From Batkoa obscura (taxonomy: Eukaryota), in NCBI GenBank assembly GCA_030770535.1, contig JASVEC010000002.1:1612001-1676000 (forward strand): a stretch of DNA of 64,000 nt. Direction: 5' to 3'. Positions within the stretch are counted from its first letter, which is position 1; each line of letters starts with the position of its first letter. Of this stretch, positions 3,032-58,060 are shown one piece after another. Position numbers and translations under genes: made by a program. The notes beneath the pieces were generated by a model. That model had not been told where the DNA came from. It was given only the letters and a program-made list of their open reading frames with translations, and did no database searches.

Positions 3032-3631
3032 ATGGAATCCCAATACAGTTTTATACCCGTCAATAATACATTTAATAATAATACCATTACCCCTAATAGC
3101 AGTGTAAAGAATACTACTGATGTAAGTGAGTATAGATTTATAGATGAAAACAATATGAATCGATTTCCGAAATACAGTTATTCTGTACCTAATGTGAATA
3201 TCAAATCAGAAGTACCAATTCGAAGGAAACAAATTAATATACGTTTACCCTCTTTGAAAGATTTAAATTTAATCCCCATTACATATAAAGAAGCCGAAGT
3301 AGGTGCTAATAATCATTTGACTAGTCCAATACAAACTCAAAGTGAACCTAACTTACATGAATCAAATCCAAAATTTATAATCATTCATGAGAATCAACAC
3401 GATAGTCCACTACCTAATCAAAGGTGGAAAGTTACTAAAGAACAGGCTAAATTATTAAATTCGATATTAAAAAAAAATTATTATCCTAATACGCAATTAA
3501 GAAATAAGTTAGCTAAAGAATTAGCTTTATCTCCAAGGACAGTTCAAATTTGGTTTCAAAATAAACGACAAGCTTATAAGTATAAGTTTGGTACTAATCC
3601 CCCACATTCTAATCAATTGAATCATATTTAA
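3032..3631 (+). CDS. Homeodomain transcription factor (single exon, C-terminal homeodomain)
   Basis: RWKVTKEQAKLL...YPNTQLRNKLAKELALSPRTVQIWFQNKRQ matches the homeodomain helix 3 WFQNxR signature; LPSL motif upstream. Confidence 0.9.
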   Translation: MESQYSFIPVNNTFNNNTITPNSSVKNTTDVSEYRFIDENNMNRFPKYSYSVPNVNIKSEVPIRRKQINIRLPSLKDLNLIPITYKEAEVGANNHLTSPIQTQSEPNLHESNPKFIIIHENQHDSPLPNQRWKVTKEQAKLLNSILKKNYYPNTQLRNKLAKELALSPRTVQIWFQNKRQAYKYKFGTNPPHSNQLNHI

Positions 3632-10727: not shown

Positions 10728-11837
10728 CTATAACTTTGCTCTATAAATATTGCTATCGTTATTCAGAAGGACAAATTTAGCAATGTTTTTGATAACAGAA
10801 GGATTGATAATTATTTGGTTATGGTTACCAAATCTATCATATAATAAAGTCACGTCTTTAACGTTTAAGTCAAACAAATGCTGACTAACTAAAAGCAACT
10901 GATCCATTGGTACTGCAGTATCATCACTCGATCCAATTAATAACACTTTTGGTAAATTAGAATAATTCATTTCATTAATATCTTTTAGTTTAACTGAAGT
11001 TACCGAATGCTCTTTTAATGCGCTATGATTATTTATCCCTGGAGCAAATACAATCATACGTGAAGAAGAGGTATCGATTTTTGGTTGACATATACCCATT
11101 CTTGGAAGCGATATATCCATTCCTACTGTATCTTCTAATTTAGGCTCATTTGTGACTGGTCTAATAACATCCTCTGATTCAGGATACTGTAAAATCATTC
11201 TTTTTGTATCTTCTAATTTAGACGACCCAAAAGTTAACTTTGAAGCGTCTTCTTCTACTTTAAAGGCGACAGAAGCAACATTATTGGAAAAAAAGGCGTT
11301 AGATTTAGTAATTGAAACTAAATCAAACACACCAGCAATTGAAATGATACCATTAATCCTATTGAACAAGTACAAAAAGTCGTTATTATTATAATAACTA
11401 CTTAATAGTTTTAAATATTTAGTTGAATTGAAACCAATTAAAAGAGAAATCAAGGCTCCAATTGAATGACCAGCTAGATAAATAGAATCGTAACTGAAAC
11501 CCAACTTTGTTACTATTTCGATATAACCTTTCATACAATCAATTAAGTGACTAGGGAATTGAAGGGTACCTTCATCTGAAGTTAAACGGTATTGTAGTCT
11601 TACCACATGGATTCCTAATTGACTCAATTGATCAGCTAATTGGTCAAATCCGGTAGCCATCTCGGGTGATAAAAATACTGCAGATTCAATAAATATAAGC
11701 AACGGTGCTGGACTAGTTCCAGTTTTGCTTGGGTGGATATGGTAAACGCATTTTTCGCTTTCACTACTATATTGTCTAGTTTGAACAGGATATTGCTTAC
11801 TACTGTTTATAACATGTTTAGGGAATTCAAATACCAT
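10728..11837 (-). CDS. Derived kynurenine-formamidase-like alpha/beta hydrolase (paralog A) with internal [R/K]-X5-P repeat insert and PTS1 (AKL)
   Basis: YRL, FP.HL.D, AGHSIG nucleophile elbow, GVFDL, SDDTAVP (Asp), GNHN (His), C-terminal AKL; intronless. Confidence 0.88.
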   Translation of the reverse strand: MVFEFPKHVINSSKQYPVQTRQYSSESEKCVYHIHPSKTGTSPAPLLIFIESAVFLSPEMATGFDQLADQLSQLGIHVVRLQYRLTSDEGTLQFPSHLIDCMKGYIEIVTKLGFSYDSIYLAGHSIGALISLLIGFNSTKYLKLLSSYYNNNDFLYLFNRINGIISIAGVFDLVSITKSNAFFSNNVASVAFKVEEDASKLTFGSSKLEDTKRMILQYPESEDVIRPVTNEPKLEDTVGMDISLPRMGICQPKIDTSSSRMIVFAPGINNHSALKEHSVTSVKLKDINEMNYSNLPKVLLIGSSDDTAVPMDQLLLVSQHLFDLNVKDVTLLYDRFGNHNQIIINPSVIKNIAKFVLLNNDSNIYRAKL

Positions 11838-14347: not shown

Positions 14348-14845
14348 ATGTCAGATTTAATTCAATATAAAATTAATCATTTAAAAGTTAACGCTTATTC
14401 CCCTGAAATGATTGTACTTCCTTCATATACAAAGAAAGTTAATTCTTTATCTTTACCTTCAATATCTTCTTTTATAAATGATTTAAATTATAACCAAGCT
14501 TTCAGTAATGATAATGAAAAATCAAAGGATACTTACATAGACAAAGAGTACACTGCTAGCTCATCTTATTCCTACTTATCGAGTCCATACAAGAGAACAG
14601 AATTAGATTATAATAACTTTTACTCAAACATTGAACTAGCGATTGATGAAGGGTTAGAACGTTTACCCATCAAACCTAAAAGAAAAAGAGCAGGCAAAGC
14701 ACAAATCAAAATACTAAATCAAATATTCTCAAAAACACCTTTTCCTAGCACAGAACTAAGGTCATTACTCTCTCATAAATTACGCATGTCTCCAAGGGCC
14801 ATCCAAATTTGGTTTCAAAATAAGAGGCAGATCAGCAAGAATTAA
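14348..14845 (+). CDS. Homeodomain transcription factor (single exon, C-terminal homeodomain)
   Basis: KPKRKRAGKAQIKILNQIFSKTPFPSTELRSLLSHKLRMSPRAIQIWFQNKRQ; LPSI motif. Confidence 0.9.
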   Translation: MSDLIQYKINHLKVNAYSPEMIVLPSYTKKVNSLSLPSISSFINDLNYNQAFSNDNEKSKDTYIDKEYTASSSYSYLSSPYKRTELDYNNFYSNIELAIDEGLERLPIKPKRKRAGKAQIKILNQIFSKTPFPSTELRSLLSHKLRMSPRAIQIWFQNKRQISKN

Positions 14846-19133: not shown

Positions 19134-20207
19134 ATGGTATTTGAACCCCCTAAGCAAATTAGAAATAACAGTAACCAATATAATGTTCAGACGAAACAAT
19201 ATAGTAGTGAAAGTGAGTTATGTGTTTACCATATTCACCCAAGTAAAACTGGTAACAACCCAGCACCATTGATTGTATTTATTGAATCAGCTATCTTTTT
19301 ATTACCTGAGGCAGCGATCGGCTTTGATCAAGCAGCTGAAAAATTAAGTCAGTCAGGAATCCACGTTGTACGATTGCAATATCGTTTAACTACCAAAGAA
19401 AATAACCTTCAATTTCCAAATCATTTACTTGACTGTATGAAAGGATATATCGATATCATAACAAAATCAGATTTAAACTATAGTTCCATTCATTTAGCTG
19501 GTCATTCGGTCGGTGGTTTAATGTCTCTTTTGATTGGTTTTAGTTCAACTAAGTATTTAAAATATTTAAATACTAATTATAATACCAGTGATTTATTGTC
19601 GCTATTTAAAAAAATCAATGGTATTATTTCAATTGCTGGTGTATTTGATTTAGCTGCAATTGCTAAATACAATGCTTTTTTTAACAATAATGTTGCTACC
19701 ATGGCTTTTCAAGTGGAAGGATGCCGAATTTCAAAGGTAGTTATACATTCGCCTGAGTCAGAAGATATTTCAAGAGTGTTTGTTCCTCCTCCAATAAAGT
19801 CAGAAGAAATTTCACGTGAATCTACAAATACTACGAAACCTGATCAAGTTGAGTCTGAATCTGAAAGCATAACACGAATGGGTATATGCCATCCGAGAAT
19901 GGGTATTTGTAGTACATTAAAAGAATATTCAGCAACTTCAATTTCATTAAAAGATATTAATGAAATGAATTATTCTAATTTACCAAAAGTTTTATTAATT
20001 GGATCTAAGGAAGATACTGCTGCCCCAGTGGAACAACTACTTCAATATAATCAACACTTATCAAGTTTAAATGTCAAGGATGTCACCTTATTCTATGATA
20101 ATTTTGGTAACCATAATCAGTTATTTTTAAATTCATCTGTTATTCAAAAAATGGCCAACTTTATTCATTCCAGTAATTATAAGAATCTCTATATGGCTAA
20201 GTTATGA
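19134..20207 (+). CDS. Derived alpha/beta hydrolase (paralog B) with internal [R/K]-X5-P repeat insert and PTS1 (AKL)
   Basis: Closely similar to paralog A outside the insert; AGHSVG, KEDTAAP, GNHN, terminal AKL; intronless. Confidence 0.88.
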   Translation: MVFEPPKQIRNNSNQYNVQTKQYSSESELCVYHIHPSKTGNNPAPLIVFIESAIFLLPEAAIGFDQAAEKLSQSGIHVVRLQYRLTTKENNLQFPNHLLDCMKGYIDIITKSDLNYSSIHLAGHSVGGLMSLLIGFSSTKYLKYLNTNYNTSDLLSLFKKINGIISIAGVFDLAAIAKYNAFFNNNVATMAFQVEGCRISKVVIHSPESEDISRVFVPPPIKSEEISRESTNTTKPDQVESESESITRMGICHPRMGICSTLKEYSATSISLKDINEMNYSNLPKVLLIGSKEDTAAPVEQLLQYNQHLSSLNVKDVTLFYDNFGNHNQLFLNSSVIQKMANFIHSSNYKNLYMAKL

Positions 20208-22642: not shown

Positions 22643-23641
22643 ATGAAGCTCGCAAGTTTTTTAGTTAGTTTAATTGCATACACTGCTATAATTGAGGCTG
22701 TGCCTTTACAACGTCGTACTTTTGGTATGCTAAATGAATTTAACTTACTTAAAGGGATTTTGGGTGGTAGTAGTAGTAGTAAAAGTAAATCTAAGGAATC
22801 TAACTCTGGTAGTAGTTCAAATACTCATAGTAATACTAATAATATGAATAGTACTCATAACAATGGTATGACTAATAATAGTAACAATAACGATAATAAT
22901 AGTAATACTAACAATAATAGTAATACTTTTAATAGCAATTCAATTAATAATAGCAACACTTCCAACAGTAATTTAATTAATAATAATGCCAATATCGACT
23001 TTATTAATAAGTTAATTAATTCGAATCTTAATAATGGTCAAGGTTTCAACGATAATTTCATTGCCAATTTTAATAATAATAATAATAATTCAGGTAGTAA
23101 TTTTAGTAATATTTTAAATAATGGAAATAACAATATTAACAATAATTCTAATGATATTATCAATTCTCAAAAGATCAATAATAGCAACTCCTTTACCAAT
23201 GGTTCTTCTTCCAGTAGTTCATCATCATCATCTTCTAACAATGAATCTGTTTGTCATCAACCTTCTTCCTCTTCATCTAGCTCTAACTGTTCTCTGAACG
23301 GTAAGAACCCATGTAACAATGGTCCAAACGATAAATGTGCACCAGGAAGTGGTTCCTCTTGTAGAAATGGTCCAAGTGATAAGTGCGCTCAAAATGTTAC
23401 TGGCTCTTCTTCCACTTGTAATAGTACTTCTTCTAGTAACAATTGTCCACCTAATAATGATAATTCTCCATCTACCTCTTCCTCTCCAATTAAGGATAGC
23501 TCTTCCACTGAAAATAGTAATTCTTCCTCTTCTTCCTCTTCTTCAAGCAGTAGTTCATCCAATAGTTCTTTGAATAACAATTTCAATATTCCAAACAATT
23601 ATCAGGTCGTTCCACCACCACCCCATGGCAATAAATATTAA
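22643..23641 (+). CDS. Secreted Asn/Ser-rich low-complexity protein with Cys-containing repeat
   Basis: Signal peptide MKLASFLVSLIAYTAIIEA, propeptide VPLQRR, poly-N/S, duplicated C(N/R)NGP(N/S)DKCA; TATATAAA upstream. Confidence 0.8.
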   Translation: MKLASFLVSLIAYTAIIEAVPLQRRTFGMLNEFNLLKGILGGSSSSKSKSKESNSGSSSNTHSNTNNMNSTHNNGMTNNSNNNDNNSNTNNNSNTFNSNSINNSNTSNSNLINNNANIDFINKLINSNLNNGQGFNDNFIANFNNNNNNSGSNFSNILNNGNNNINNNSNDIINSQKINNSNSFTNGSSSSSSSSSSSNNESVCHQPSSSSSSSNCSLNGKNPCNNGPNDKCAPGSGSSCRNGPSDKCAQNVTGSSSTCNSTSSSNNCPPNNDNSPSTSSSPIKDSSSTENSNSSSSSSSSSSSSSNSSLNNNFNIPNNYQVVPPPPHGNKY

Positions 23642-41713: not shown

Positions 41714-42970
41714 TTAAGAATGTTTCGATCTACTCTCTTTAATAAGCTCTCTTTCAGGTTTTGTTTTGAAAGCAAGCGAAACAAAGTTAGGCACTTTATT
41801 AAGCAGATCTATATAATAATTTTGTAAAGCTTCATTTTGTCTCACTCTAGTCAAATTAAGTTTGTTCATTTGGGCCCATTTAACTGGCATTGGATTTCTT
41901 TTAACAACTTTATAAGGCCTCAAGCCTTTAGGTGTAATTGTGCTAACATTACTAGTTACTGGTCCAACTTGATTTGAAAGCTTCGAAATTAATTGTGGTA
42001 ATGTCAATTGCGAATTGACTCCATTTAAAATCGGATTATTATCAATCAGACTTTCTATCACGTTCGTGACGGCTGGTACTGGGTCATAAGACCTTCTCTG
42101 TACATTTTGTTTTAACGTAGTTGGATAAGAAGGATAGGTATAACAATATATATCTTTAGTGGTATTTAAGGTGCTGTTCACGTCATACTTCCAAGTAATC
42201 AATGGGTCATTGAGCCCTACTTTAGTTTGATAAACGTCCCCATCGTATTGCAGCGACTTTGGATTTCTACGCTGCCAATTATACCACAAAAGATCCATAA
42301 ACGAATGATGTAAATAAAACAATGGATCGTTTGGTGATATCATCTGAGTAAAATCCATCCCACCACCAATATTATTATGAGGATCGGCATGTACCTGCTC
42401 CACATTATCTTCAAAATCAGAAAACTTTTTTAGGTTCAAGAAAGGGTTAATCACTTCTGGAATTGCAAATTTACTTATTTTGGAACCTAAATCATAGCTT
42501 CTTTGCAAGCAATGATCTGTATCGTATTTTAAAGTCATATAAGCAAACTCGCCATCTTGTACGCAGTAAGTGTTATTGCTATTACCATTGCTACCAAAAT
42601 ACCAATCCGAAAGCACTAGAGAGTCTTGTGGTGCTTGGGCATCGATAGACCAATCCCAATAAGGTAGCATAACCGAACTGTCAATCTTTTGTAGCTCCAT
42701 TTCATATAGTCGGATAAAGTGACGATGCCAGGGTAAGAATCTAGGTACTGAGTGGGAGATCTCATGGTTTTCATTATGTACTTTGGTAAATTGTTCATGA
42801 ATTGATAAGTTAGTATTGCTGTATTGTGTGTTATGTAAAGACCTTACAGCATCGGTGAATCTATATAATTCATCCGAGGTGAGGTCACGGATTTCTTTAC
42901 GTTCTCGCGGAGAGGTACACGTTTGCGTGTAAACAACGGCAATAAATAAAGGGAGGTATAGCAATTTCAT
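41714..42970 (-). CDS. Secreted tyrosinase (type-3 copper protein)
   Basis: Signal peptide; RKEIR; CuA region H...H..PRFLPWHR; LPYWDW; CuB region HADPHNNIGG...SPNDPLFYLHHSFMD. Confidence 0.93.
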   Translation of the reverse strand: MKLLYLPLFIAVVYTQTCTSPRERKEIRDLTSDELYRFTDAVRSLHNTQYSNTNLSIHEQFTKVHNENHEISHSVPRFLPWHRHFIRLYEMELQKIDSSVMLPYWDWSIDAQAPQDSLVLSDWYFGSNGNSNNTYCVQDGEFAYMTLKYDTDHCLQRSYDLGSKISKFAIPEVINPFLNLKKFSDFEDNVEQVHADPHNNIGGGMDFTQMISPNDPLFYLHHSFMDLLWYNWQRRNPKSLQYDGDVYQTKVGLNDPLITWKYDVNSTLNTTKDIYCYTYPSYPTTLKQNVQRRSYDPVPAVTNVIESLIDNNPILNGVNSQLTLPQLISKLSNQVGPVTSNVSTITPKGLRPYKVVKRNPMPVKWAQMNKLNLTRVRQNEALQNYYIDLLNKVPNFVSLAFKTKPERELIKESRSKHS

Positions 42971-45413: not shown

Positions 45414-45920
45414 TTACACACCACGAAGTAGCAAGAATCCTAAAGTAGAGAATATAAGGATGTGAAGCTCCTTTGGGATATTAAAAAATAGTTTGAAATC
45501 CCCATTTTCGCGAGAAAAAGTGCCAATGGTTGCTTCTGGTTTTAAGGAGCAATTTAAGATCCATTTATCTGTATAAAATGTCCAATAATAATATATGGCA
45601 GCTTCATGACTTGGACAGATAATAATTTCAGCATGATAACCTTCATTGCTTTTTAGTTTCAATTGGAATTTTAAATCAGAAAGCTTACTAGCTGGGTCTA
45701 CTAAACTTATTTTAAACTCGTTTTTTGCGAAGAAATGTGCTTTAGTTATTTTTGCTAATGGTAAATTATTCGCAGATAATAAAAGAGTGCATTTATTATT
45801 AATCAGTATGGATTTGTATTGGTGATTCAAAGTGGAGTCATCAGTTACTAAAGATATATTATAATTTTTTAATTGATTATTTGGATCTTTTTCAAATTTA
45901 TATTTTATTAAACTTTCCAT
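45414..45920 (-). CDS. Hypothetical 168-aa protein, paralog of 52282-52794
   Basis: Shares LPLAKI, LSDLK, Y.AEI.I, YYWT and KEL..L..TL.FLL.R with 52282-52794. Confidence 0.75.
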   Translation of the reverse strand: MESLIKYKFEKDPNNQLKNYNISLVTDDSTLNHQYKSILINNKCTLLLSANNLPLAKITKAHFFAKNEFKISLVDPASKLSDLKFQLKLKSNEGYHAEIIICPSHEAAIYYYWTFYTDKWILNCSLKPEATIGTFSRENGDFKLFFNIPKELHILIFSTLGFLLLRGV

Positions 45921-48033: not shown

Positions 48034-49711
48034 CTATAATTTAGAAGCCAAAAACTTAGGTGATGGTCTATCTGGAATAATAAAATCTAAAATAGCTTGG
48101 GCAATTAATGGATCCTTGGTAATATCATTGTGTCCACCAAAATTGTTAGCCAAATATTTAAGTTTATCAAATCCAAGGAAATTCAAATGTTTTGCAAAAT
48201 TTAAGCTATGGCCTGAATGAACTAAAGTATCATTAGTCGAGTGAATGATCAATGCTTTAGGTAAAGTAGTATAAGGTATCATCTTCAAGTGAGAGCTAGT
48301 AACATACTGTGGAGAAACAGATCTTAAATAATTTAATAATTTTTCATCGTTTGTAATCAAAGATTGAGAATTGTTGTTGACTTCATTATTTGGAGTTATA
48401 GAGTTGGAGTTATTTTGAGGATAACTCCATTGAAGTTTGGGCTCTTCTTGAGCTTTTGGTGAATATTGTGGTTTTGTATAAACAGATCTTGTGATGCTTG
48501 ATTGACCGTTTGTATTAGGACCAATAGTCATGGTTCTCTCGGTAATAGTAACATGAACATCTTTAGGTATAATATAATTATAAAATTGAGTTCCGTGACT
48601 GGGCTCTATTCTAATACTTTCAGAGTTGTTCAAATCAGTTCTATTTTCAGTATTTGAGGAATCTCTTTCCCCATTAATTGGACTTGGTACAATAAGTCTT
48701 TCCCCATTAATTGGACTTGGTACAATAAGTCTTTCTGTATTATGAGGGCTTACTACAATGAGCCTTTCTGTATTATGAGGGCTTGGTACAATGAGCCTTT
48801 CTGTATTATGAGGGCTTGGTACAATGAGCCTTTCTGTATTATGAGGGCTTGGTACAATGAGCCTTTCTGTATTATGAGGGCTTGGTACAATAAGCCTTTC
48901 TGGGTTACTTGAAGTATAAGGCGCTGATCCAGAAGTAAATTGCCCAATATCATTTTGGTTTAAGGAAACTTCATATTGAGAAACAAATGATTGATTTGCG
49001 TTTTGAGCCTGTATTGAATCGGCGTGAGAGAATTTGGTAATTCCGTTGTGATTAAAATAAACATTCTCCTTCGCAACTTGAGATAAATCAAAAGTTCCAG
49101 CTAAGGAAACTAACCCTTTTATTCTGGATATTAAAGTTGTTTCCTGATCTTTACTGCTTGAAAGCAATGGTAAATATGCACCAGAGTCCAAAGCTATTAT
49201 ACTAGCAAGAAGCGCACCAGATGAGTGACCGCCAATGTAAATTTCATTACTTGCAAATATACTATGAGTTAAAATATGTAAATAACCCTTTAAACAGTCT
49301 TCAATGTGATTTTTGAATTTAATATCACTATGGTTATTTGTGCGATAATTTACCCTAATTACATTAAGCCCCTCATCACTTAAACGTTGAATAAAATTTT
49401 CAAAATCAACATGACTAGCACTTAAATATGGGAAAGATTCAAACCAAATCAAAACAGGAGCTTTTGAATTGTACTTGCATGGATAAATATAATACTTACA
49501 TTCTTCGGATTCTTTTGAGTAAACAACCTCGAAGCCAGAAGAAGGTTTTGATGAGTCACTAAAGAGTTGATTAATTAATAAAGAAAAAAAATACTAAAAT
49601 AAATTACTTTAAAGGTTTTGATTCATAAACATTTACAGCACTATAAGGGCTTGAGGTGATAATATTCCCTCTAGTACTTTCTAAATCAGTCATATGAGTC
49701 CCAATTACCAT
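48034..49711 (-). CDS. Derived alpha/beta hydrolase (paralog C, ~542 aa, 2 exons) with large repeat insert and PTS1 (SKL)
   Basis: ATG 49711; phase-2 intron 49559-49607 restores an N-terminus (YSKESEECKYYIYP...APVLIWFES) homologous to paralogs A/B; GGHSSG, GTFDL, STNDTLV, GGHND, terminal SKL. Confidence 0.87.
48664..48900 (-). repeat. 33-bp coding tandem repeat x7 encoding ERLIV(P/V)SP(HNT/ING)
   Basis: Near-identical gggcttggtacaatgagcctttctgtattatga units on the + strand. Confidence 0.97.
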
Positions 49712-52281: not shown

Positions 52282-52794
52282 ATGAATTCTATCATATGTT
52301 ATCAATTCACTAAAGATACCAAAACTAATGTTTATAACTTAAATCCTAAGCTTGACTATGTCAATCAAAAATATCAGTACTCACTCACATTTACTAATAA
52401 GAAGACTGCCATTGTAGTTGATGGCTTAGGTTTACCTTTAGCAAAAATTGAAAGTTGTGGCCTCTTTAATATAAGCAGATACAAGATTATTATTGCCATG
52501 CCAGAATTATGTCTTTCCGATCTTAAGATAAGATTGATAATACCAAGTAAAAGTAAAATGAATGCTTATCGCGCTGAAATTAAGATTAGCTCTCAAAACA
52601 GCAAGCAGGGTGTATCTTATTATTGGACTTATTACAGTGAAGAAGGCTGGTTTTTAAATAGCTCTAAGGATCCCGAATTATCTATTGCTTCCTACAGTTT
52701 TAAAAATCCAGTTTATACTTTGTTTTGCAATACTTCTAAAGAACTCAATGTTTTATTTTTGACAACTCTCTCCTTCCTTTTATATAGAAACTAG
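52282..52794 (+). CDS. Hypothetical 170-aa protein, paralog of 45414-45920
   Basis: Collinear similarity to 45414-45920 across the full length. Confidence 0.75.
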   Translation: MNSIICYQFTKDTKTNVYNLNPKLDYVNQKYQYSLTFTNKKTAIVVDGLGLPLAKIESCGLFNISRYKIIIAMPELCLSDLKIRLIIPSKSKMNAYRAEIKISSQNSKQGVSYYWTYYSEEGWFLNSSKDPELSIASYSFKNPVYTLFCNTSKELNVLFLTTLSFLLYRN

Positions 52795-57164: not shown

Positions 57165-58060
57165 TTATAATTTAGTTTTATTATTGTTTAAAAAATTGAA
57201 TAATAAGGTAATCAGATTAATATCACGTGGCATATCATTATGGTCCCCAAAATTATCAACAACCATATGTACTTTGTTAAATTTTTGTTCCATTAATTTA
57301 TTAAGGAAATTATAGCCTTGGTCATTTGGTAATAGAGTATCAGTATTAGAATGGACAAGTAAAAATTCTTTATCGAAACAATCTAACCCGTTATTTCTGT
57401 TATTAAATTTAATAAATTGTGGTGAATAGTTATCCCATCTATCTTTATCTTTACCAAAACAAAGCTCAATAAAAGCATCCTTATAGCCATCATTATATTT
57501 CACTAATAAACTAATATCAAGTACTGAAGCAAGTAACATTAAACCTTGTACTTTCTTTAATAATTGAACATCATCTTCGTTAATATGTGGGTAATATGTA
57601 AATAAATCTAACATAATCATCGAAATCATAAAGCCACCAGCAGAATGACCAGCCAACCAAACACCTTTATATTTCAAATCCAATTTTAATACATGTAATA
57701 TTCCATTTAATGCATCATTCAAGTGAGTTGGATATCTTACATTATTTTCAAAATCAGTGATACGATATTTTAATAATACGAAGTTAATTCCCAACTTACT
57801 TAATGTTTCTCCCATAAAGAAGAAATTACTACTTTGATCCGTTACCCAGCCACCGCCATGAAGTAAAATAATTAAGGGTTGATTTGGTGCTCCATTGAAT
57901 ATATAATAAGTTTGATCTATTTCATTTCCATACTTTCCATCTGGATTACGTTCAATTCCTCGAGTTAATATACTATGATTATTTATTTAAATAAAGCTAT
58001 TAAATTTAAATTCAACACTTACTGAGGTTTACTTAATAATCTTTCACTTTTAGCATCCAT
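57165..58060 (-). CDS. Canonical kynurenine-formamidase-like alpha/beta hydrolase (paralog D, ~281 aa, 2 exons), no insert, C-terminal TKL
   Basis: ATG 58060, phase-2 intron 57973-58022; LIILLHGGGW, YR, YPTHLND, AGHSAGG, YSP, HSNTDTLLP, GDHND. Confidence 0.88.

Follow-up and report, generated by a model that had tools for sequence, protein, structure and literature searches.

What does an array of short, mostly proline-ended units do inside the catalytic domain of an enzyme? The question is raised by a hydrolase gene, paralog A, in a 64,000-nucleotide stretch of contig JASVEC010000002.1 of Batkoa obscura (GCA_030770535.1, positions 1,612,001 to 1,676,000, forward strand), here called the window, within which all coordinates are given. 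The window is AT-rich fungal DNA with a GC content of 21-37%, and the gene is laid out as follows.

10728..11837, minus strand: paralog A, an intronless hydrolase gene of 369 aa (open reading frame; PF20434, E 2e-8; Foldseek; VIA-align)
11673..11687, minus strand: ESAVF loop, replacing the HGG(A/G)W oxyanion loop of the family (alignment)
10821..11465, minus strand: predicted catalytic triad, Ser125 (GHSIG), Asp306 and His339 (nearly invariant alignment columns; roles by homology)
11040..11252, minus strand: insert, residues 196-266, predicted disordered (alignment and AlphaFold)
10731..10739, minus strand: C-terminal AKL, a PTS1-type peroxisomal signal (consensus match)

The product is a BD-FAE / kynurenine-formamidase-like alpha/beta-hydrolase (PF20434, E 2e-8). 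Pfam assigned it exclusively to alpha/beta-hydrolase families, the Peptidase_S9 match being weak or partial, and an atlas query with the whole protein led to BD-FAE hydrolases; a sequence search of the PDB gave no match below E 0.04, and an NCBIfam search gave nothing over the cut-off. AlphaFold models a single, confidently folded domain without a beta-propeller, for which the top Foldseek match is 1vkh (YDR428C, E 1.2e-13), a yeast protein that we take to be Bna7, the kynurenine formamidase, which cleaves an amide. VIA-align superposed the model on kynurenine formamidase/HSL-type folds (Z 25.6, rmsd 2.6, 241 residues aligned); Z values of 24-27 are near-ties among many esterases, and the 50 entries shown are esterases, lipases, one formamidase and similar hydrolases. 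Neither a peptidase nor a cyclase is known to us from this esterase-like branch.

HGGxW is the oxyanion-loop motif of the HSL-type BD-FAE hydrolases. The fold, the GHSxG nucleophile, the Asp and the His are common to A, Bna7/AFMID and the HSL-family (BD-FAE) esterases. Unlike these enzymes, A and its paralogs B and C have ESAVF, ESAIF and ESFPY, respectively, in place of HGGxW, carry a repeat insert of 70-200 residues, and finish in a PTS1-type tripeptide. The PTS1 consensus, C-terminal [SAC][KRH][LM], is matched by A (AKL), B (AKL) and C (SKL), and a peroxisomal location is suggested for all three. A PTS2 signal was set aside, as the candidate is Pro-rich and its last position departs from the PTS2 consensus used.

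The A protein is 98% identical to a database protein from Neoconidiobolus thromboides FSU 785; as seven residues differ, the window appears to hold another allele. Two short contigs of one sequencing run match gene A outside the insert. One contig of run X1, at 11539-11747, differs from gene A in 14 of 209 letters, with four residue changes among nine listed differences, and is by this comparison a further allele or close paralog.

In an alignment of 37 sequences (six from A/B/C and 31 others), the insert lies between the post-beta6 cap helix and an ASPQ-type motif; the loop at this place is short in most relatives, and its length also varies among insert-free relatives. Residues 196-226 and 228-266 of A have a pLDDT below 50 within a confident domain, and a folded repeat domain was set aside on this value. 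The insert holds six units, each a single residue (R, K or G) followed by a six-residue core, together with a duplicated spacer.

11220..11240 (core 11220-11237), minus strand: unit A1, K-LTFGSS, without Pro
11181..11201 (core 11181-11198), minus strand: unit A2, R-MILQYP
11142..11162 (core 11142-11159), minus strand: unit A3, R-PVTNEP (PATNEP in the database allele)
11103..11123 (core 11103-11120), minus strand: unit A4, G-MDISLP, its G encoded by gga (aga in the duplicated copy)
11082..11102 (core 11082-11099), minus strand: unit A5, R-MGICQP, abutting A4 without a spacer and matching B unit R-MGICHP
11040..11060 (core 11040-11057), minus strand: unit A6, R-MIVFAP
11118..11221 (11118-11143 and 11196-11221), plus strand: duplicated spacer, two 26-nt copies 78 nt apart, 88% alike, 17 nt exact

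All six units were found in the open reading frame at 10728-11837 (-), where a preliminary description of this DNA had placed them. The 13-residue period that it proposed holds for three of the five intervals between core starts (13, 13, 13, 7, 14) and fails for the other two. Protein autocorrelation gave a top lag of 26 residues (z 4.2; family-wise p 0.0035 over lags 2-40), followed by 13 (z 3.65); at the DNA level the lags of 78 and 39 nt stood out (family-wise p 0.03). The duplication of the KLEDT spacer in DNA was also borne out, in that the exact 17-nt repeat, 78 nt apart, exceeds the longest repeat in 5000 codon shuffles (15 nt). To speak of fixed spacers and fully diverged hexamers, however, overstates the pattern: the spacers are KLEDTK, ESEDVI, KLEDTV, none and KIDTSSS, with near-identity between the first and third alone, and the four Met-starting cores have 9-13 of 18 nt in common pairwise. 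Since the KLEDT copies differ at no synonymous position, a recent short copy would fit them better than selection on the spacer. The core ends in Pro in five of the six units, and A1 looks like a decayed one, as had been proposed for LTFGSS, for the collinear B unit VVIHSP keeps its Pro and lies one base away at that codon. The tripeptides SKL and PKL recur in the A spacers (ASKL, SSKL and EPKL, window 11130-11245, minus strand), and EPKL is found in C too, possibly by chance.

Three further paralogs lie in the window.

19134..20207, plus strand: paralog B, 357 aa, with ESAIF loop, triad and AKL end
19737, 19776, 19818, 19878 and 19899, plus strand: B units K-VVIHSP, R-VFVPPP, R-ESTNTT, R-MGICHP and R-MGICST, respectively
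48034..~49711, minus strand: paralog C, with ESFPY loop, triad and SKL end; its short first exon is inferred from database model P0008
48679..48902, minus strand: tandem array of C, seven units R-LIV(P/V)SP with a 33-nt period, six of them LIVPSP
48418..48537, minus strand: diverged C units R-TMTIGP, R-SVYTKP and K-LQWSYP
57165..57986, minus strand: main exon of paralog D, an insert-free relative with HGGGW loop and TKL end, used for comparison

A and B are single open reading frames and the units of C fall within its main exon, so that enzyme and candidate cores are part of one polypeptide; the Ser-Asp-His triad is kept in all three (37-sequence alignment). Spacers appear dispensable, as B has a 7-residue tandem and A4 and A5 abut, and range from none to about 12 residues, whereas core length is constant at six. 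Copy number changes as well, the tandem array of C having seven copies in the window allele and five in the database allele, one of the five being LIVPGP. With seven near-identical cores of two repeat types, C offers the best test case. At least five collinear units lack the R or the P, namely A1, A4, the broken B units R-ESTNTT and R-MGICST, and R-DSSNTE of C. Most of residues 213-405 of the C model fall below pLDDT 50 (AlphaFold), and an atlas query with the C insert returned no usable feature match, its structure rows reaching a TM of 0.24 at most. At the ASPQ-type motif, the Pro is lost in A (HSVTS, window 10985-11010, minus strand) and in B (YSATS, ~19920-19945, plus strand), and C retains VSPQY directly after the insert. 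The C unit R-SVYTKP-QY resembles this motif, and the units may therefore be derived from copies of it.

Other genes of the window include homeodomain genes at 3032-3631 (+) and 14348-14845 (+), one of them between paralogs A and B; an apparently secreted, Asn/Ser-rich protein at 22643-23641 (+), with short Cys repeats (CxxGPxDKC-like) after a KR/RR-type site; and an apparently secreted, Thr/Ser/Tyr-rich protein at 25053-26660 (+), in which a TYSTPTYTTSTTD-like repeat of 39 nt (13 aa) occurs about 28 times. Two similar-looking open reading frames of 168-170 aa flank paralog C, at 45414-45920 (-) and 52282-52794 (+), and have no Pfam or NCBIfam match. A gene cluster with a nearby tyrosinase was set aside, as that protein is apparently secreted and no link to the hydrolases was found.

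41714-42970, minus strand: tyrosinase-domain gene with a signal-peptide-like N-terminus

The basic residue-six residues-Pro frame is not confined to A. The motif [RK]x5P, defined on A, occurs seven times in B and C against 1.45 expected (p 1e-4), B and C being out of sample and the tandem copies of C collapsed to one, whereas gaps of 2-4 and 6-9 between R/K and P gave 0-3 matches each in B and C, none of them enriched. Among the 13 distinct R/K-x5-P units, the residue is hydrophobic at position 1 in 10, at position 2 in 10 and at position 3 in 11, compared with 47 of 228 residues outside the units. What is kept across the array is the R, the P, the six-residue length and the hydrophobic positions 1-3. 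The C insert has no 9-nt word in common with those of A and B, and an alignment of the A and C inserts was no better than shuffles (p 0.69). The inserts of B and C do align weakly (shuffle p 0.002; BLASTP E 0.052), with synonymous differences present, though their catalytic domains are 33% identical.

In a tree built on 31 insert-free domain sequences, A, B and C form one clade (support 100/96) within a group made up mostly of N. thromboides paralogs. The insert, the ES-type loop (ESAVF, ESAIF or ESFPY) and the AKL/SKL end occur together in all six clade sequences; among the other 40 sequences the ES loop is found in none, and a PTS1-type end in one, a 128-aa fragment. P0011, P0012 and a few others deviate from HGG(A/G)W in ways other than the ES loop. 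The tree gives the clade a single origin and places the gain of the insert, of the ES loop and of the PTS1-type end on one branch. Word-index protein searches returned two, three and one proteins, all from N. thromboides, with no ortholog from other species; the index is not fully sensitive, as the search with alignment A1 missed C. When 1.84 billion representatives were searched with HMMER, 40 matched; seven of these (P0020, P0024, P0026, P0029, P0030, P0031 and P0038) were excluded as fragments or long fusions, and among the 33 aligned the long insert is present solely in those representing B and C. No relative turned up in two metagenome scans. Elsewhere, N. thromboides encodes at least five further insert-free paralogs (P0009-P0012 and P0020); the oxyanion loops of P0011 and P0012 are altered, and in P0012 the nucleophile position is occupied by Cys (GHCAG).

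The preliminary description had taken the array to combine conserved spacers with diversified cores. Between A and B, nonsynonymous changes affect 21 of 47 core and 10 of 29 spacer sites (p 0.47), and the core MGIC(Q/H)P is common to both paralogs. Core positions 1-5 have a pN of 0.46, above that of the domain (pN 0.16, pS 0.57; p 6e-6), and the spacers a pN of 0.35. In C the order is reversed, with the core unchanged and the spacer changing: between repeat types, R plus core has four synonymous and no nonsynonymous differences, and the spacer about one and four (path-averaged; p 0.048). With core and spacer rates that do not differ between A and B and the opposite pattern in C, the proposed rate signature is not demonstrated; the frame of basic residue, six residues and Pro is retained. 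Cores change no faster than the synonymous rate (p 0.14), so diversifying selection is not demonstrated, and positive selection on the cores was set aside on the same ground. The R/P anchors have a pN of 0.17 (eight codons), like that of the domain; their comparison with the cores gives p 0.08 in a unit alignment for which R/P served in part as anchors, although it is in line with the tblastn alignment. The units look like constrained cassettes, given that the motif recurs out of sample and its anchors diverge about as fast as the folded domain, and we infer selection on the R, the P and the length of the units.

These rates also bear on a neutral account of the array, namely that an ancestral R-x5-P in a tolerant surface loop was copied by slippage and is now decaying, the pattern being a remnant of descent. 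Core interiors of units 1-3 have changed at about the neutral rate (20 of 34, against 102 of 178 neutral), cores and spacers change alike, and the 17-nt duplication in A looks recent, being free of synonymous change. The known occurrence of the clade in one species only, the allelic difference in C copy number, the several broken units and the variable loop of the insert-free relatives would all suit such an expansion. It accounts poorly, however, for an exact spacing kept across paralogs that are 33-39% identical, and for the persistence of R, P and hydrophobic positions where the C insert has no 9-nt word in common with A and B. In addition, the core change in C is synonymous only, Pro codons would be expected to erode in a genome of about 25% GC, and the insert arose on the branch of the ES loop and PTS1-type end. 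Neutral expansion is unlikely in our estimation, and the motif array in this lineage-restricted hydrolase clade is real, probably selected and apparently undescribed.

The interpretation that we tentatively favor, while giving it somewhat less than an even chance, is that the array in A, B and C is a precursor of several core peptides, built into the very hydrolase that would process it. The array unit would be [R/K]-hydrophobic-x-hydrophobic-x-x-P, presented in the predicted-disordered cap loop. A separate protease would cut after R/K and free the N-terminus of each hexapeptide, the cut behind the Pro would be made by the Ser-Asp-His triad of the hydrolase itself, by way of an acyl-enzyme at this residue, and hydrolysis or cyclization of the acyl-enzyme would then yield a linear or a head-to-tail cyclic hexapeptide, released probably inside peroxisomes. 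These putative steps are modeled on OLP1/PCY1 and POPB, as presented in PMC11253845 and PMC9233826. The same papers offer precedents both for fused enzyme-precursors (borosins and BURP domains) and for macrocyclization through an acyl-enzyme by serine enzymes (POPB and PCY1).

Constant core length, dispensable spacers, changing copy number and hydrophobic, Pro-ended cores give the array its likeness to cyclic-peptide precursors. Also in favor are the recurrence of [RK]x5P with hydrophobic positions 1-3, the synonymous-only core change in C, the retained triad, the B and C inserts that still align although their domains have diverged to 33% identity, and the active-site loop that changed on the branch where the insert appeared. 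Counting against a precursor are the two cuts of differing specificity that are required, the broken units (at least five), the core-anchor contrast that reaches p 0.08 only, the near-neutral core interiors of units 1-3, the A and C inserts that do not align, the listed fold neighbors, among which there is no known peptidase, and a clade found in one species; a nick in the cap loop could, moreover, destabilize the enzyme. A Pfam scan of 60 of the 99 stop-to-stop ORF pieces of the window turned up neither a stand-alone protease nor a POP or DUF3328 gene, and the sole Peptidase_S9 matches among the scanned pieces are the hydrolase paralogs themselves. A stronger form of the idea makes this formamidase-type hydrolase a self-contained peroxisomal cyclic-hexapeptide factory and a new fused-precursor RiPP class, in which the remodeled active site would recognize and macrocyclize the Arg-x5-Pro cassettes of the enzyme's cap loop, with cyclo-MILQYP, cyclo-MIVFAP and cyclo-LIVPSP as example products. 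We consider this form improbable.

It is nearly as likely as the precursor reading, if itself doubtful, that the array consists of short linear motifs for docking or regulation, which stay attached and serve in multivalent partner binding or as a pseudosubstrate lid over the active site of the same enzyme. Such a role needs no processing enzymes, and fixed spacing with free interiors suits motifs as well as cores. Class I SH3 ligands have basic, hydrophobic and Pro anchors at i, i+3 and i+6, the spacing seen here, but Pro at position 3 occurs in none of 13 units, unlike typical SH3 ligands. The calcineurin docking consensus motifs are PxIxIT and LxVP; LIVP of C resembles the latter, which fits C alone. 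The C stretch DVHVTITE and the LIVP units (window 48418-48902, minus strand) resemble PxIxIT and LxVP, respectively. No A unit has Ser/Thr before Pro, so proline-directed phosphorylation would not be common to the array, and a location in the peroxisomal matrix would part the loop from cytosolic partners. A disordered insert in an HSL-type catalytic domain nevertheless has a precedent in human hormone-sensitive lipase, where residues 521-669 carry phosphorylation sites (PMC3031774). The long segment of the mammalian enzyme, likewise inserted in the catalytic domain, is a phosphorylation module and is not described there as repeats.

Very unlikely, to our mind, are two further roles: that the hydrophobic triplets act as "stickers" assembling a dense peroxisomal body, or that the insert is an inhibitory pro-segment removed by a basic-site protease, with peptides as by-products. 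The PTS1-type ends, the disordered insert and the beta-branched hydrophobic residues at positions 1-3 are compatible with them, and have precedents in the excised cap segments of serine carboxypeptidases and in peroxisome-derived protein cores. Neither role requires Pro exactly six residues past a basic residue, however, and the AlphaFold models are without confident repeat structure.

If the favored reading, a precursor inside its own hydrolase, is set beside known systems, the fungal borosins (OphMA) and the plant BURP-domain burpitides, like A, combine an enzyme domain and core(s) in one polypeptide (PMC9233826, PMC11253845). Their enzymes are N-methyltransferases or copper cyclases and their self-processing is proven, whereas A, B and C are Ser-Asp-His alpha/beta-hydrolases with cores in an internal cap loop and a putative self-processing. 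No N-methyltransferase or BURP domain is present in A, B or C, in which Pfam found alpha/beta-hydrolase families alone. The MSDIN peptides (amatoxins and cycloamanides) with POPB, and the orbitides with OLP1 and PCY1, resemble the proposal in that short cores are released by a serine enzyme, and MSDIN cores end at Pro (PMC9233826, PMC11253845); the two-step logic given there, an N-terminal cut by one protease followed by acyl-enzyme cyclization by a second, is the model proposed for A, B and C. MSDIN and orbitide precursors are separate and short, whereas the A/B/C cores follow Arg/Lys within the enzyme and have no MSDIN leader. A short precursor with an MSDIN leader and a Pro-preceded core is not what A presents, its cores being preceded by R, K or G inside a protein of 369 aa. 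The S9A prolyl oligopeptidases are built from a beta-propeller and a catalytic domain; POPB, PCY1 and OphP have this propeller, and A is a small hydrolase that lacks it.

Kex2-processed repeat proteins (KEPs) and dikaritins also have repeated cores after basic residues, and KEPs are reported as abundant in Zoopagomycota, at 11.56 per strain (PMC7329392). A, B and C differ in their PTS1-type end and in their fusion to an enzyme. A hydropathy scan, used alone, found no ER signal peptide (N-terminal hydropathy of at most 0.81, against 2.77 in a secreted relative), and dibasic Kex2 sites between the repeats number one KR in A and none in B or C. Borosin, burpitide, MSDIN, S9A macrocyclase and KEP identities were accordingly rejected on the defining features tested. 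The DUF3328 gene that neighbors KEP and dikaritin precursors gave no match in the 60 of 99 ORF pieces scanned. The literature searched, which lies largely outside subscription journals, has no description of such a protein or of these peptides, and the A hexamers as search words returned grapevine papers only. Peptide cassettes inside their own enzyme were an arrangement not found in that literature; on the favored reading they would function as fused precursors do, but the enzyme is another one and the cassette lies within it.

The exact masses predicted for the peptides make release cheap to test. If the units are released, the hydrolases would form a third enzyme class of fused enzyme-precursor RiPPs, after the methyltransferases and the BURP domains, and would provide a peptide cyclase that is small, encoded by one gene and permissive in its cores. 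The A/B/C array would escape precursor searches based on signal peptides, Kex2 sites or short open reading frames. Even if it served for docking, it would clearly illustrate how a motif array, a changed active-site loop and a targeting signal arose on the same branch. Should the precursor reading hold true, an early-diverging, insect-associated fungus would have ribosomal peptide chemistry in a protein of peroxisomal type.
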